A stretch of DNA of 64,000 nt from Acidobacteriota bacterium (GTDB lineage Bacteria > Acidobacteriota > UBA6911), in assembly GCA_963664705.1 (NCBI GenBank), contig OY761556.1, forward strand, positions 384,001-448,000, given 5' to 3'. Positions 51,949-62,007 of this stretch are shown piece after piece. The notes beneath the pieces were generated by a model, which was not told where the DNA came from, did no database searches, and saw only the letters and a list, made by a program, of their open reading frames with translations. Position 1 is the stretch's first letter. Each line of letters opens with the position of its first letter. A program made the position numbers and the translations under genes.

Positions 51949-54441
51949 CTATATTTTCCCCAGGGCCTTCAGGACTCTTGCGGGCGTCAACGGATAATCC
52001 AGCGCCCACTTGCCTGTCGCGTTATGGATCGCGCCCGCGGTGACTCCCGACAGGGATGCGCCGGTAGCTTCTCCAATGCCGCAGGCTCCATAGGATGAGT
52101 ATCCCATGTGGCTTTCATTGAGGATGCATTCAATATCCGGGTAATCATTCATCGTTCCGATGTGATACCCGATGTTGTCAAAATTCAGCCCCACGCCGGT
52201 GCGCGGACAGTAAATCTTTTCCTCGGTTGCGCTTCTCCCCAGCCCCATGATCGCGCCGCCGTATTGTTGAGCCTCAGCGCTGCGTCGGCTGAACAGATGG
52301 CCGACGTCATTGGTGCACACGAGGTTTGTGACGAGCACTTCCCCGGTTTCGGTGTCCACTTCGACCTCGATAAAATGCGCCTGCCGGCTCATGATGTACA
52401 TCTGCGGATGTGGTTTACCATCAAGCGTCAGCCCGCTGACGTTGGGCACAACCGGATGGACAATGGCCGGATCATCGCCCCAGTTCGGACTCGCGACTTC
52501 CTTAACGCTTTTTCTGCTTTTCGGATTTGCTTTCTCAAAAACAAACCCGTCCTTGACATCGAGCTCTTCCGGCTTTTTGCCGGCAAAAGATACGGAGCTC
52601 TTGCTCGGTGCAAACCCGCGCGGCGGGCCTCCCATCCCAGCCGGCTTGATTGCGTATTCAATGATCTTTCGTTTCAGTTCGCGTGCAGCAACGACGAGTT
52701 GGGGTGTTGATTGACCAATCCCCATGGCTCCGCCGGGAACCCAGAATTGGAAGGTGTCGGCATCCGTCCGTTGATTCTGAACAATAATGTCTTCGTAATT
52801 CAGGCCCGATTCTGAAGCGACGCAGTGGCGGAATGAAGACTCGGTATCCATGCCGAAGTCGGGACGCAAACCTACGATGGTAAGCTTCCCCTGGCGCAGA
52901 ATAAGGCATGCAAACTGCCTGCCGGCTATCCAGCTCCATTCATTGATATGCATGAAACCAAGACCGTGCATCCTGCCGTTAGGAAGTTTTCTTGTGCCAG
53001 GCGCATGCCATTTCTTATCCCATTGAATGGCGTCTTTTCCCAGTTTGATTATTTCCCTCAGGCTTTGTCGCTGGGGGAATGCGTTTTCTTTCTGGTATTT
53101 TGTTACCCAATCCCAATCGTGCCCCTGGCAGCCATCGTTCTTAAGCGCGACTTCCGTGGGATCCAAGCCAAACTCAGCCGCAACCTTGGAAAACATTACA
53201 TGGTGTGGCACGCAGCATTGGGACCCGTGCCTGAAACATACGTGATGTCCGTGGTTGATCAGCGCCCATTGTTGCGTATTGCGGAAATTGTGAATGCTGG
53301 TGGATTCGTGCGTTTTGTCGATGTGAAGTTCACCGACGGGTCCTGTCACATCCCAGTCGACTGCCGTGATGGTCCCGTCTTTTTTTGCCCCTACCTTGCA
53401 GCGATAGATCGCGGCATCATCTCCGTTTGCATAAAAATTGCTCTCGTCATAAAGAAGCTTTACCGGCCGGTCTTTTGCCCTTTTGGCAAGAATGACCGCG
53501 AGTCGGATAAAGGCCGTGGAGTATCCCAGCCATGCAATACCACCGTACCAGGCACCCTGGTACGGCACCGTAACCGTCAGTTTGTTGTGCTCGCAAAGCG
53601 GCGGGATAGGCTGCATGCGGTCCGTGGGCTTCGCAGCGGCTTCAACATCAACACTGCCATAGCCGAGCGAGACCTGAGACAGCCCTGCCTGTACGGTGCT
53701 CGGCATAGTCAGGACGGGGTGCATATGGGCGGTATGGTGTGGCCACAGATCCAGGTGGTCTCCGCGCCATTGAGCGACGCAAGCCATTGCCTCCACACCC
53801 GCCGGCGTATTCGTGCCCCTGGTAAACGTGTATTCAATCGTCTTGTCTGCCTCTGCAAATCCTTTCTCGATGTCCCCGATTTCAGTCGATTTGGTGGGCA
53901 CCAGGGTATTGGGATCCTTCAAGTCTTTTCCCAGCCGCAGTATTTCCGGCATGATCTTGGGCGCATCCGGCTTCAAGGATTTTTCCATGTCCAGGATGAA
54001 GGGCAGCTCTTCCCACTCAATCTGAATCATCCTGAGGGCGCGGTCGCATAGCTCCTCGCTGTCGGCTACGACAACAACTCCCATCGGATGCTGGAAGAAA
54101 TCGCCGGTTCGCGGAAGGGTAAGAATGTTGTATCGACTGGAGCAGTATCCTCCAGTTGAGTTTTCAAACTGAATGTCGGGATCGTCGAACCGCAGGATAT
54201 CCCGGACGCCAACAAGGGCTGCCGCCTTGCTTGTGTCCATTTTTGTTATTTTTGCATGCGCGTACGGGGATGTGAGTATCTTCGCGTACAGCATCCCCGG
54301 AAGAACCACATCTCGCGTAAAAACTGCCTGGCCGGATAGCTTGTCATGGGCGTCCTGACGGGACATTCCCTTGTCAACAGGTGAGACTTCCGGCGGTTTC
54401 CATGTCCACGGTCTGAAATCTTCCGGCATTCCATTCTCCAT
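51949..54441 (-). CDS. Xanthine oxidase/aldehyde oxidoreductase family molybdopterin-binding large subunit
   Basis: R.DA.DKLSG.A.FT.D..LPGMLYAKILTSPYAHAKI, VGAKKDG.I, AHFIEVEVDTETGEV, NDVG, GIGE and YPLTP.RVL. Start at 54441 or 54429. Confidence 0.92.
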   Translation of the reverse strand: MENGMPEDFRPWTWKPPEVSPVDKGMSRQDAHDKLSGQAVFTRDVVLPGMLYAKILTSPYAHAKITKMDTSKAAALVGVRDILRFDDPDIQFENSTGGYCSSRYNILTLPRTGDFFQHPMGVVVVADSEELCDRALRMIQIEWEELPFILDMEKSLKPDAPKIMPEILRLGKDLKDPNTLVPTKSTEIGDIEKGFAEADKTIEYTFTRGTNTPAGVEAMACVAQWRGDHLDLWPHHTAHMHPVLTMPSTVQAGLSQVSLGYGSVDVEAAAKPTDRMQPIPPLCEHNKLTVTVPYQGAWYGGIAWLGYSTAFIRLAVILAKRAKDRPVKLLYDESNFYANGDDAAIYRCKVGAKKDGTITAVDWDVTGPVGELHIDKTHESTSIHNFRNTQQWALINHGHHVCFRHGSQCCVPHHVMFSKVAAEFGLDPTEVALKNDGCQGHDWDWVTKYQKENAFPQRQSLREIIKLGKDAIQWDKKWHAPGTRKLPNGRMHGLGFMHINEWSWIAGRQFACLILRQGKLTIVGLRPDFGMDTESSFRHCVASESGLNYEDIIVQNQRTDADTFQFWVPGGAMGIGQSTPQLVVAARELKRKIIEYAIKPAGMGGPPRGFAPSKSSVSFAGKKPEELDVKDGFVFEKANPKSRKSVKEVASPNWGDDPAIVHPVVPNVSGLTLDGKPHPQMYIMSRQAHFIEVEVDTETGEVLVTNLVCTNDVGHLFSRRSAEAQQYGGAIMGLGRSATEEKIYCPRTGVGLNFDNIGYHIGTMNDYPDIECILNESHMGYSSYGACGIGEATGASLSGVTAGAIHNATGKWALDYPLTPARVLKALGKI

Positions 54442-54449
54442 TGTAAAAA

Positions 54450-54523
54450 GATTCCCGATGTCAAATTTCGGATTCCAGATTCCCGATCTCCAGTCCGAAA
54501 TCGAGAATCTGGAATTTAGAATT
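54450..54523. repeat. Inverted heptamer arrays (GATTYCN)
   Basis: GATTCCC GATGTCA AATTTCG GATTCCA GATTCCC GATCTCC ... CGAAATC GAGAATC TGGAATT TAGAATT. Confidence 0.7.
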
Positions 54524-54529
54524 CACTCA

Positions 54530-56080
54530 TTACCTGGGGTCGACACAGGTAAAATTTTCGGCTTTGTTGATATCGCCGGATCCCTTGAATTTGGGGACTT
54601 TGGGATAGACGCATGCGGGCCTCGTCCGGGACACCACGCCTTTGTCTCGCTGTACGAAGGTAATTGTTTCCGGAGCTTCTCCTTTTTCTACCCAATTCTG
54701 AATGGCGGTAAAGGAGTCGAAGTCCTTCTGGCCGCCCATGAAACCCGGGCAGCCGGTCGATCCTGGGATCATGAACATTCGGGCAAAATCCTGCGTCTTG
54801 CCGGGTCCGCCCATGGTGCTTTCCACTTTCTCGTAATATTCCAGATAGCTGCGCACCGGCAGCGCATTCGAATTCCACGACCCGGCCAGGATGATCTTTC
54901 CGCCGGCCTTCTTAAAAGGCCTTAGGTCCGGATTATTGGCGTCCACCACTTTGCCGGCTTTTTTGATCCCCAGGCGAGTGTCCTTATCAACATCAAATGT
55001 GCGCCAGTCCCAGTTGAGGTCTTCTTTAACCATTCCTTTGAAGTAATCGACATTAACAAAGAAGGGATCTTTTTCAACCATGATAGGAGCCCAGGTCAAC
55101 TCGCTTCCCGGCTGGAAGCCGCTGTAGATCTGCGTTCCATCCTTGAATTTTGCTCCGGCATAGATCTTTTTCACCGTATCCACCTGGGCTGCAGTCAGGC
55201 AGGTCGGTTCATCGGTGTTGCCGCTGCACTGGATGGTTTTTGGGTCAAATTTGCATTCTCGCGGGTCGGTAATCAAACCATCTTTGAAGCCGTCAATGGC
55301 ATCGCAGGCTTCAATGGCGGCTTGGTTGATGATCCCGAGCTTCTTTCCGATATAGCCGGGAGCATTGACTCCATCTTTCAGGGCTACCCAGCTTATGTAC
55401 AGCGATCCGGGCTGTAAATGAGAGATCCAGTAGGCGGGATCGGTTACGACGATTCCGTCATAATCGTTCGGGTAGCGCTGTGCTTCGTTCAGTCCCTGGT
55501 TGCTTCCGTTGTGGCAGCTGTTCCAGTAGGAGTGCTGAGCAGGTTTGCCGTAATATGCAGTGATAAATGCTTTTGCTGCAACCGTCATTTCGTGAACCGC
55601 GCGATAACCCCAGTCCGCCCATTTTTCCGGGTGGCCGACTGCCCATTTTGCCGTGTCGTCAACATGGCCGGTATCAGTGGATGCGGTTGCCCATCCCTGC
55701 GCGACATTGCCTGCAAGAGCACCGCGGGCCAGGGATCCGATGAACCCCGGGTTCCCCACGCCAAAAAATCTGCCGTTCCAATTGGAGGCGAGCGGGAGCC
55801 AGACCTCGATTCCGATGTGCGAATCTTTGGATGGCGCCGAATAGGCTTCAATGCGGCAGAACGGAACCGAAACCTTTTGTCCGGCCTTGGTGTTGATAAA
55901 ACCTTCCTGTACGGGCATTTCCCATCCGGCATCCATGGCCTTTGCCGAGGTAATGGTGAGGTTGGGTATCTTGAGCGATGTCAGGCTTTCGCAGGATTGT
56001 TGAGCATGTACGGGCAATGTAAGAAACAGGAAAGCGGCCAGCATTCCTATCGCGATACAGGAGCAAGTTCGCAAATTCAT
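54530..56080 (-). CDS. Secreted tannase/feruloyl-esterase-fold protein with non-canonical catalytic residues
   Basis: Signal peptide, IEVWLP...WNGRF.G.GN.G, ASTDTGH, AQRYP.DYDG, CDA.DG..DG.I.DP..C, NPDL.PF...GGK, WVEKG.AP and RP.C.YP. Confidence 0.88.
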   Translation of the reverse strand: MNLRTCSCIAIGMLAAFLFLTLPVHAQQSCESLTSLKIPNLTITSAKAMDAGWEMPVQEGFINTKAGQKVSVPFCRIEAYSAPSKDSHIGIEVWLPLASNWNGRFFGVGNPGFIGSLARGALAGNVAQGWATASTDTGHVDDTAKWAVGHPEKWADWGYRAVHEMTVAAKAFITAYYGKPAQHSYWNSCHNGSNQGLNEAQRYPNDYDGIVVTDPAYWISHLQPGSLYISWVALKDGVNAPGYIGKKLGIINQAAIEACDAIDGFKDGLITDPRECKFDPKTIQCSGNTDEPTCLTAAQVDTVKKIYAGAKFKDGTQIYSGFQPGSELTWAPIMVEKDPFFVNVDYFKGMVKEDLNWDWRTFDVDKDTRLGIKKAGKVVDANNPDLRPFKKAGGKIILAGSWNSNALPVRSYLEYYEKVESTMGGPGKTQDFARMFMIPGSTGCPGFMGGQKDFDSFTAIQNWVEKGEAPETITFVQRDKGVVSRTRPACVYPKVPKFKGSGDINKAENFTCVDPR

Positions 56081-56175
56081 AGAAATACCTCTTGGGAAAT
56101 AGAGTTTAGTCCAGGTCTCCTCTGGTCAGAGATGGGGGGTATTATACTAGTGTTTAAGGAAGGGAAGTTAGTGAT

Positions 56176-56221
56176 AAAAAAGCGCCATGCATTGCATAAA
56201 ATCAAGCAATGCATGGCGCTT
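56176..56221 (-). terminator. Rho-independent terminator
   Basis: AAGCGCCATGCATTGC / GCAATGCATGGCGCTT with an A-run on the plus strand (U-run on minus). Confidence 0.8.
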
Positions 56222-60273: not shown

Positions 60274-62007
60274 CTACTTCTTGAATTCCTCGATATTCCT
60301 GGCGACCTTGCCGTTCGGCAAAGTGACCGGCAGGACAATGCCTTCGCTGTGCAATGCCCAGGGCAGAATAACACCGGAATGACCGCCGCGCCCGCCGGCA
60401 ACCACGATTTCAACATCCTTGGGCGAACGTGTTACCGGCATCGGATGTTTTGTCGCGAACTCGGGTGGGCGGACCGGTACAAGCCCTCTTCCGCGCACCA
60501 TGGGGGTATCGTGAACGGCGCGCAGATGAATGTGCTCGCGGATCATGTCTTTTGTGTATCCTGAATTCTTGAGCATCATTCCATGATCGGGCGTGAGGAC
60601 GAGGATGAGCGGGCCTGGAATGTAGGCGTTGTTGGTGCCGAGCGTGGTGCAGCAATCCGTAATCGTATCCAGGAGATCGTGGCCATTCAGGCTCAGGAAA
60701 TCAATGATATCGTGCTGCGGTTCCGCCTTGAGGACATAGACGGTGGTGGTTTCCGCGTCGTAGTGTTCCTCGTTAATCATCTGCCATTGGGCCAGACTCG
60801 GTTCTTCGGCAAAGCAGTAGGTAAATTCCGCCTGCGAGGCAATACAATCCAGATCGCAGATGCCGGGCACCGAACGACAGACGTTCAGGATAACCAGGTT
60901 TACAGCACGGCCCAACGTGGCATTTCCAGGATAGCCGGGACCGAGGCATCCTTGTTTGCCGGACAGCCCGATCTGCTGCGCAATGGGTCCGCTGACCAGA
61001 ACCAGGTTTCCCCCGGGATGCGAGGTCGTAACGGATTGAAGCAGATTGTATCTGCGGTCCGCCAGCGCTTTAAACGCAGCCACCAATACGGGCATGGCCT
61101 GCGGCTTACATCCGGCCATGACCGCGGCAATCGCGACATCCTTAACCGTAACGTCCTTGCCGGTCGGCCCGACTTCACGCCACAGCGTTTCGTCCGGGCT
61201 CCAGGGGCAGTAGGCATACATTCGGTTCAGCCGGGACTGAGTCGGCGGAATCACTGGCAGTCCATCTCCGATGTGCTCCCGGTCGAGATAATCCATGACC
61301 TCTTCCATGTAGCAGCCCGGTTCGCACAGTTTGTCCTCCTGGACTTTGAGTGCTTCCGTTATTGGCAGGAGGCCATCTGCGGCCGGAGGAACGAGATCCA
61401 TCTTGAAATCGATGCGGGCTACTTCTGCCAGTTTCTTGGGTTCGGCCGTCAACGAATCAGTGATGTAATCCCACTTCAGATCGATCTGTTGCCGGACTTC
61501 CTCAACAGTGCTCGCCTGGTAGATATCAATTTTGCACAGGCACAGGTTGCCGGCGCGATAGACGGCAACACCCTCCACCAGTTCGCCGCCCGGAGGCGCC
61601 GTAATATAGACGGTCGGGATACCAAGTTTTTCCAGCGCGATGGTTACAATGCACGTGGCGGGAGATGTTCCCATATCGCCAAGTGCTACCACGGCCGCAT
61701 CCGGCTTTTCCTTGGCCAGCATCGCCGCATATGCCTCCAGCGCTTTCGTGTCCTTTCCTCTAACGGTTTCCAGATAATCAATAAAATTGCTGATTCCCAT
61801 TTCACGAAAGCGCTCCTTGATACGGACAAAGACCTCTCCGTAATTGCAGAAGCTGAGTTTCGTGTTGTTGTAAAACAGAATTTTGCCTTTTTTCAGCTTA
61901 TCAATAGTTGTCCTGGGGGCCAGTTTTAGAATTGGCCTCTCCTGAATTCCACGCGGGTCCAACAAAGAAGTAAGTTTACCGTCCAAGTGAAGACACTCCT
62001 TTCGCAT
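60274..62007 (-). CDS. UGSC-family-like fusion protein (N-terminal UGSC-like domain + large partner domain), lacking Sec
   Basis: N-domain NNTK...DAAVVALGDMGTS...LEKLGIPTV. C-domain GDGLPVIPPT, VAIAAVMAGCKP, NATLGRAV.L, CFAE and IVVAGG. Confidence 0.7.
   Translation of the reverse strand: MRKECLHLDGKLTSLLDPRGIQERPILKLAPRTTIDKLKKGKILFYNNTKLSFCNYGEVFVRIKERFREMGISNFIDYLETVRGKDTKALEAYAAMLAKEKPDAAVVALGDMGTSPATCIVTIALEKLGIPTVYITAPPGGELVEGVAVYRAGNLCLCKIDIYQASTVEEVRQQIDLKWDYITDSLTAEPKKLAEVARIDFKMDLVPPAADGLLPITEALKVQEDKLCEPGCYMEEVMDYLDREHIGDGLPVIPPTQSRLNRMYAYCPWSPDETLWREVGPTGKDVTVKDVAIAAVMAGCKPQAMPVLVAAFKALADRRYNLLQSVTTSHPGGNLVLVSGPIAQQIGLSGKQGCLGPGYPGNATLGRAVNLVILNVCRSVPGICDLDCIASQAEFTYCFAEEPSLAQWQMINEEHYDAETTTVYVLKAEPQHDIIDFLSLNGHDLLDTITDCCTTLGTNNAYIPGPLILVLTPDHGMMLKNSGYTKDMIREHIHLRAVHDTPMVRGRGLVPVRPPEFATKHPMPVTRSPKDVEIVVAGGRGGHSGVILPWALHSEGIVLPVTLPNGKVARNIEEFKK

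Follow-up and report, generated by a model that had tools for sequence, protein, structure and literature searches.

A conserved bacterial tannase-fold subfamily with a lost catalytic triad and a fixed histidine at the serine site

The window analyzed here, a 64,000-nucleotide stretch of an Acidobacteriota genome (GTDB lineage UBA6911; GenBank assembly GCA_963664705.1, contig OY761556.1, positions 384,001 to 448,000), carries on its reverse strand a gene, P0001, for a tannase/feruloyl-esterase-fold protein in which all three residues of the catalytic triad are replaced. The gene sits between two large subunits of xanthine-oxidase-family molybdenum (Mo) enzymes, downstream of AFOR, UGSC-like and flavin adenine dinucleotide (FAD)-oxidoreductase genes (Table 1). 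Its product matches the tannase family (PF07519) at 336.5 bits, against a curated cut-off of 29.8, and begins with MNLRTCSCIAIGMLAAFLFLTLPVHA-QQ, which to the eye resembles a Sec signal peptide. An AlphaFold2 model based on a 121-sequence alignment has a mean predicted local distance difference test score of 91.4 and contains both the alpha/beta core and the large helical lid. Foldseek gives template-modeling (TM) scores of 0.85-0.87 to 6G21 (0.86), 3WMT and 6FAT, VIA superposes the model on 8BHH (Z 45.2, root-mean-square deviation 2.3 Å over 479 residues), and an ESM Atlas search with P0001 returned tannase clusters only. No NCBIfam model matched either P0001 or P0123, a relative with His, Glu and Met at the triad sites. 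By descent and fold P0001 is a member of the tannase family; by the triad criteria, its sequence predicts that it is not a serine esterase.

Triad positions were mapped through a phmmer alignment to the fungal feruloyl esterase FoFaeC (9HUN), numbered by the residues named in PMC13618265; this and the other papers cited are used through their available excerpts. FoFaeC has a Ser201-His452-Asp412 triad and an oxyanion hole formed by Gly123 and Thr202 (PMC13618265). In P0001, Ser201 is replaced by His190, Asp412 by Ser404 and His452 by Gly443, and the cysteines that flank the triad, Cys200 and Cys453, are both kept as Cys189 and Cys444. In the oxyanion region, Gly112 (the retained Gly123) and Asn191 (for Thr202) align with the FoFaeC pair, the preceding Gly122 is Pro111, and after strand beta6 Ala225 has become Asp214. 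Hydrophobic pocket positions are largely as in the FoFaeC list (Ile219, Leu222, Ile333, Phe340, Val342, Ala406 and Leu407; PMC13618265). A preliminary description of this DNA, made from the letters alone, had read the elbow as SCHNGS, the base motif as PGSTGC and the acid motif as GSWNS, with both signature cysteines retained. Each of these readings is exact by the alignment, in which the fuller motifs are YWNSCHNGSNQG for the elbow (with His190 encoded by CAC at 55511-55513), AGSWNSNALP for the acid site and IPGSTGCPG for the base site. In the model, DSSP assigns a strand to residues 183-189 and a helix to residues 190-202, so that His190 opens the helix at the apex of the elbow.

Table 1. 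Features of the P0001 locus, in window coordinates.
Feature	Coordinates	Strand	Basis and details
Tannase/feruloyl-esterase-fold open reading frame, His-elbow subfamily (P0001)	54530..56080	-	516 aa; Pfam PF07519, E=3.9e-100
Likely Sec signal peptide, residues 1-26 (VHA/QQ)	56003..56080	-	By-eye reading; Ala26, Gln27 and Gln28 at least 90% conserved
Oxyanion loop: Pro111 (Gly in family) and Gly112 (oxyanion-hole Gly, kept)	55745..55750	-	Alignment to FoFaeC Gly122/Gly123
Nucleophile elbow Ser188-Cys189-His190, His190 in place of catalytic Ser	55511..55519	-	Alignment; DSSP of model
Asp214, end of strand beta6 (209-215), an alternative site for the acid; likely pairs with His190	55439..55441	-	Conservation and model strand; position as in available excerpt of PMC7034887
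Gln223, clade-fixed, start of lid, likely pocket-lining	55412..55414	-	Conservation
Lid aspartates Asp260/Asp263/Asp267	55280..55303	-	Conservation
Ser404 in place of catalytic Asp (basal members: Glu)	54869..54871	-	Alignment and conservation
Gly443 in place of catalytic His (basal members: Met) and Cys444, probably disulfide-bonded to Cys189	54749..54754	-	Alignment and conservation
Xanthine-oxidase-family Mo large subunit, downstream partner conserved in the window's subclade only	51949..54441	-	Pfam; below all NCBIfam cut-offs; synteny
Intergenic hairpin between P0001 and downstream Mo gene, no U-tract	54472..54515	-	19 bp; 8/8 folded relatives have long hairpins there, mostly of other sequence
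TATAAT -10-like box upstream of P0001	56141..56146	-	Sequence; 41-76 nt before start in 7/7 close relatives checked
Terminator-like hairpin and U-tract ending upstream Mo gene	56174..56221	-	16-bp stem, -29.5 kcal/mol, then T6

The replacements are shared by a clade. The best 120 of 6505 phmmer matches at E<=0.001, which are 60-91% identical to P0001, all read SCHNG at the elbow, carry Asp214 and lack a base-site His, and 30 of 30 loci picked by hidden Markov model (HMM) also carry the elbow His; neither set involved a motif filter. In a quick IQ-TREE phylogeny (79 of 129 rows, midpoint root, no bootstrap), 40 His proteins fall on one side of a branch with Shimodaira-Hasegawa-like approximate likelihood-ratio support of 100 and 39 Ser tannases on the other, with support of 82 for a His-Glu sub-branch and 98 for a His-Asn sub-branch. 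Ratios of non-synonymous to synonymous substitution (dN/dS) are 0.045-0.061 against five close relatives; of three further comparisons, two reached saturation and the third gave 0.044. Within the window's genus, 27 of 29 other genomes contain a match at E<=1e-180; none of 21 genomes from other genera of the family does. The proposal that the site was re-wired in a coordinated way and did not simply decay is thus borne out, as the substitutions are common to all 120 top homologs, trace to one clade and coexist with a dN/dS of ~0.05. We conclude that P0001 belongs to a conserved bacterial tannase-fold subfamily that has lost the triad, has fixed a His at the Ser site and is under purifying selection.

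Residue counts over 173 His proteins, non-redundant at 90%, and 141 Ser-tannase representatives show where constraint now lies. Ser188 and Gln223 are present in all 173 His proteins versus 10 and 18 of the Ser tannases, Asp214 in 172 versus 21 (15%), Pro111 in 172 versus 1 and Gly112 in 166 versus 120. Cys189, Cys444, Trp402 and the lid aspartates Asp260, Asp263 and Asp267, which we take to be a lid Ca2+ motif, are each found in 173/173. At the old acid site the clade has Ser in 132 proteins, Glu in 40 and Gly in 1, and at the old base site Gly in 137, Met in 31, Ile in 2, Arg in 2 and Asn in 1, with no His at that column in any of the 173. Because the old acid and base sites drift while His190, Asp214 and Gln223 are fixed, constraint has moved rather than vanished.

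Broader scans outline the history of the change. A GTDB genome scan confirmed 186 stretches, the best 80 of which were retained and gave 79 loci. Their record titles place 62 in Acidobacteriota, 12 in Desulfatiglans-type Thermodesulfobacteriota, 2 in Gammaproteobacteria and 3 in others. Among them is a second branch whose elbow reads SCHEGG and whose acid and base sites hold Glu and Met, respectively. Metagenomic and same-genus loci added further His-Asn forms with acid/base residues Glu/Met, Glu/Arg, Glu/Ile and Glu/Gly. Counts of His in these collection-scan sets are partly by construction, because the scans of GTDB genomes and of metagenomes each used the His motif as one search pattern. 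Both branches of the His-Glu/His-Asn split include members with Glu404 and Met443, so His-Glu-Met is likely the ancestral form and the His-Ser-Gly form of the window derived. An HMM search of 1.84 billion 50%-cluster representatives, with the best 150 examined, yielded 160 aligned domains including the query, 126 of which read Ser-Asp-His. Among these 150, the His clade is represented by one full-length protein and three fragments; an elbow His is confined to the full-length protein and two fragments of the His clade, a distribution beyond chance, and no full-length intermediate with both an elbow His and a base His was seen. Six other tannase-family representatives (P0146, P0173, P0184, P0221, P0223 and P0261) have Cys or Gly for the elbow Ser, and some of them also lack the base His, which represents further independent losses of the triad.

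The window's genome encodes a second His paralog of the His-Glu-Gly form (C1:4862150-4863895) and 11 tannase paralogs with an elbow Ser. Two long Ser-type paralogs (C1 1135179-1137206 and 6309391-6311526) lack both the elbow and the base-side Cys, and their motifs read GSSQGG...NHGL and GNSAGG...GHIG. Elsewhere, His-clade genes occur as tandem pairs (L031:5373-8569, L060:5171-8539 and L162); at L031, a His-Glu member without Asp214 is paired with a His-Asn member.

The preliminary description also allowed for P0001 serving the Mo enzyme encoded directly downstream, a link that holds for the window's subclade only. A Mo large subunit lies directly downstream at 10 of 10 loci with at least 68% identity and at least 500 bp of room, and at one shorter locus; these 11 include three fetched twice as the same sequence, leaving 8/8 distinct loci. 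By contrast, none of 144 loci below 68% identity (duplicates kept) has one directly downstream, and 7 have one elsewhere in the locus. A Mo partnership for the whole family is therefore rejected and, since the link is limited to the window's subclade, Mo service is not the family's defining role. Within the subclade, the adjacent Mo gene is a different paralog (28-29% identity) in two of the eight distinct loci and upstream flanks vary, so the tannase-fold/Mo pair has been kept across contexts.

The downstream Mo subunit lacks a signal peptide, and no gene for a small subunit lies close to it. Elsewhere in the genome, which has 21 Mo large-subunit matches, are five 2Fe-2S subunits with RRxFL-type N-termini, and one twin-arginine 2Fe-2S small subunit adjoins a 45%-identical paralog of the downstream Mo subunit; with such small subunits available, export of the Mo enzyme is possible. 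The large subunits on either side of P0001 (51949-54441 and 56229-58640, both on the reverse strand) are 59% identical and lack adjacent 2Fe-2S or FAD subunits. Five of the 21 matches form a group at 58-100% identity, and all NCBIfam models score far below their cut-offs. Four near-identical 2Fe-2S small subunits (C1 68004, 3090402, 4313845 and 6002125) have RRNFLK twin-arginine N-termini and an extra zinc-finger-like C-x2-C...H-x4-H stretch, and only one of them adjoins a Mo large subunit.

Partners differ among lineages. In Desulfatiglans they are Fer4, AFOR, SGL, multiheme and AKR genes, and in Acidiferrales a pyrroloquinoline quinone (PQQ) dehydrogenase, a cytochrome c and a lactonase-like propeller. 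We counted Mo, tungsten (W) and PQQ markers within 7 kb of each gene. Markers flank 16 of 36 His-Glu loci versus 2 of 20 Ser-tannase loci in a control set drawn from five of those genomes, an enrichment that is suggestive; they flank 9 of 12 Desulfatiglans loci, a set without controls, and 11% of random windows. Because the markers were taken from His-clade neighborhoods and kin are not independent, we treat the oxidoreductase association as a lead only. No transporter is a steady neighbor (one ATP-binding cassette (ABC) cluster and two major facilitator superfamily clusters occur at 4 of 81 loci each), and no steady sensor neighbor was found across the clade loci mapped.

Several other features of the locus and its relatives were recorded. 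A promoter scan called no full promoter upstream of P0001. In the intergenic hairpin downstream of P0001, one arm is matched by 12 short stretches at other places in the genome, like a repetitive extragenic palindromic repeat. A UGSC-related 577-aa protein is encoded at 60274-62007 on the reverse strand, and split UGSC-type gene pairs recur near His-clade and ordinary tannases alike. Tandem genes for TonB-dependent-type outer-membrane beta-barrels (PF25183; 43900-47574 and 48202-51825, forward strand) converge on the Mo/tannase block. At other loci, secreted-looking proteins of ~320 aa with an N-terminal CDRACLE motif and no Pfam match (L063:5768-6769, reverse strand, and 18 relatives) lie near 16 of 81 loci, sometimes doubled, and also near ordinary tannases.

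What might such a protein do? The clade likely runs a reaction different from that implied by its esterase label in databases, judging from its residues. The reading we prefer, at a probability of roughly one half, is that P0001 would be an exported general acid/base enzyme that uses a His190-Asp214 pair and has no acyl-serine step. The end of strand beta6 is an alternative position for the acid in alpha/beta hydrolases, from which it contacts the nucleophile and the imidazole of the base (PMC7034887; PMC11878206), and alpha/beta-fold enzymes with a His-Asp dyad and a dispensable nucleophile are represented by HOD and AqdC (PMC10548524). In P0001, the ring of His190 could fill the space left free where Met or Gly has replaced the old base His, and hydrogen bond to Asp214 and, in basal members, to the longer Glu404 as well. 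His190, likely oriented by Asp214, would then activate water or the substrate directly, without a covalent acyl-serine step. The substrate may be a small aromatic carbonyl compound in the periplasm, and candidate reactions include cleavage of a labile ester or lactone by activated water and a lyase or tautomerase step that gives or takes an aldehyde. The product could feed the Mo, W or PQQ oxidoreductases placed alongside in three lineages.

Joining these steps gives a fuller account, in which the active site was rebuilt in place: the base His would have moved from the post-beta8 loop to the elbow, paired first with a lengthened Glu at the old acid site and later with the post-beta6 Asp alone. 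The outcome would be a periplasmic enzyme that works without Ser and produces or uses up aromatic aldehydes or lactones for the Mo, W and PQQ oxidoreductases of Acidobacteriota and Desulfatiglans. We offer this account tentatively, as a possible history that falls short of the odds given to the acid/base enzyme itself.

Several observations weigh against an acid/base enzyme tied to oxidoreductases. Asp214 may be structural, as the site is also Asp in 21 of the 141 ordinary Ser tannases and the residue is missing in one His member, at L031. Pro111, which precedes the oxyanion Gly in 172 of 173 His proteins, may shut the oxyanion hole. The link to oxidoreductases is confined to particular lineages, and a general enrichment did not show in the like-for-like comparison: markers flank 5 of 29 Acidobacteriota His-Asn loci versus 3 of 51 Ser-tannase loci (Fisher p=0.13), and four of the five positive loci belong to the window's subclade.

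The preliminary description had allowed for new chemistry or a periplasmic aromatic-binding protein, and the second option has the most to recommend it among the alternatives. P0001 could be a pseudoenzyme, a non-catalytic binder or carrier analogous to GID1, in which the former acyl pocket would hold an aromatic acid or aldehyde, hydrogen bonded to His190, for delivery to an oxidoreductase or a sensor. Loss of all three catalytic residues, the largely kept hydrophobic pocket, the Mo gene directly downstream in 8/8 close loci and possible export of the Mo enzyme through twin-arginine 2Fe-2S subunits all fit this picture. However, the clade has no constant partner, transporter or sensor; the window's Mo subunit lacks both a signal peptide and a nearby small subunit; and a fixed His together with a fixed Asp at a known acid position would exceed what a binder needs. 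The conserved linkage to ABC or tripartite ATP-independent periplasmic transporters that a solute-binding component would have was not seen (ABC cluster at 4 of 81 loci). We favor chemistry over binding, because His190 and Asp214 are fixed and no transporter is a steady neighbor, and consider a binder unlikely, if still a serious contender.

A His at the elbow apex, beside a retained Gly112, could also act as the nucleophile itself, forming a transient acyl- or phospho-imidazole in the kept oxyanion hole. This role is improbable. The nitrogens of an imidazole sit further from the backbone than the oxygen of Ser, no second base is left to hydrolyze the intermediate, and the available text of two reviews gives no precedent for His as an elbow nucleophile (PMC7034887; PMC11878206).

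The same residues invite a metal site, in which His190 and Asp214, joined by Glu404 and Met443 in basal members, would make P0001 a metallo-hydrolase or redox protein. In basal members His, Asp, Glu, Met and two Cys do cluster at the old active site, and redox genes are frequent neighbors. Nevertheless, the window's branch no longer has Glu404 or Met443 (Ser 132 and Gly 137 of 173), which leaves two ligands, His221 alternates with Arg (140 and 33 of 173) and, in relatives of solved structure, the two Cys form a disulfide (PMC7568301), making a metal center more doubtful still. Attachment of heme c through the Cys-His and Met-Cys pairs was dropped by reasoning, since a CxxCH motif is absent, most members have lost the Met and, as just noted, the Cys form a disulfide in solved relatives.

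It is highly improbable that P0001 is a serine esterase with His190 as its base and a relocated nucleophile at Ser188, Ser401 or Ser404. Ser188 is invariant, and both AGY and TCN codons specify Ser404, suggesting selection for its hydroxyl. But Ser188, the neighbor that the preliminary description considered as a substitute nucleophile, lies in strand beta5 and occurs beside an intact triad in 10 of the 141 Ser tannases, and on that distribution it is rejected for the role; Ser401 is Ala or Gly in 9 of 173 His proteins, and Ser404 is Glu in 40. Neutral decay of a redundant paralog, for which the 11 Ser-elbow paralogs in the genome provide a backdrop, is ruled out for practical purposes by the SCHNG elbow common to 120/120 homologs, the single clade and the dN/dS of ~0.05, and is further opposed by the open frame, the matches in 27/29 other genomes of the genus and the upstream TATAAT in 7/7 relatives.

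P0001 has its whole fold and lid in common with the fungal feruloyl esterases FoFaeC (6FAT, 8BHH and 9HUN) and AoFaeB (3WMT) and the A. oryzae esterase 6G21 (VIA Z 45, 2.3-2.4 Å over ~480 residues, 29-31% identity) and keeps their active-site Cys pair, oxyanion Gly and lid aspartates. It differs from them in the replacement of Ser by His, of Asp by Ser (Glu in basal members) and of His by Gly (Met in basal members), in Pro for the oxyanion-loop Gly and in Asp for the post-beta6 Ala. To Ideonella sakaiensis MHETase (6QGA and 6QZ3) the VIA Z is 36. MHETase, a bacterial protein of tannase-family fold, also has the Cys pair flanking its nucleophile and base positions (PMC7568301). By contrast, P0001 retains no equivalent of the MHETase triad, Ser225-His528-Asp492, in which S225A is inactive, and has Pro at position 131, where 91% of 6,671 family sequences have Gly; most active-site positions are highly conserved over that set (PMC7568301).

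Mechanistically, P0001 would work most like the cofactor-free dioxygenases HOD and AqdC, which provide precedent for a dispensable nucleophile and a His-Asp general base (PMC10548524); their His251 is the canonical triad base, whereas P0001 has Gly443 there and a new His at the elbow. P0001 also belongs to a different family. Desulfatiglans are strict anaerobes, so use of O2 is unlikely in that lineage. E. coli RutD resembles P0001 in having an alpha/beta fold, no Ser nucleophile and a His in the elbow region, where it reportedly occupies the nucleophile's place. In RutD, however, the elbow reads GHALG, with Ala at the apex and the His one residue earlier, whereas in the S-C-H-N-G of P0001 the His is at the apex, after Cys. 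Moreover, RutD has 266 aa and no tannase lid, and by eye keeps a later GGH motif, whereas P0001 has lost the base His.

A literature search, mainly of open-access papers in their main texts without supplements, found no description of the His-elbow clade. In the excerpts available, reviews describe the post-beta8 His as conserved in alpha/beta hydrolases and the elbow residue as Ser, Cys, Asp or no nucleophile (PMC11878206; PMC7034887), and His is not among the nucleophile options listed in the available part of PMC11878206. The clade departs from both of these rules under strong selection. Many database records label its proteins 'feruloyl esterase', so the numbers of esterases assigned to Desulfatiglans and to Acidobacteriota of soils and sediments are likely inflated. 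More broadly, the clade offers a natural series, from Ser-Asp-His through His-Glu-Met and His-Glu-Gly to His-Ser-Gly, in which the re-wiring of an active site can be studied.
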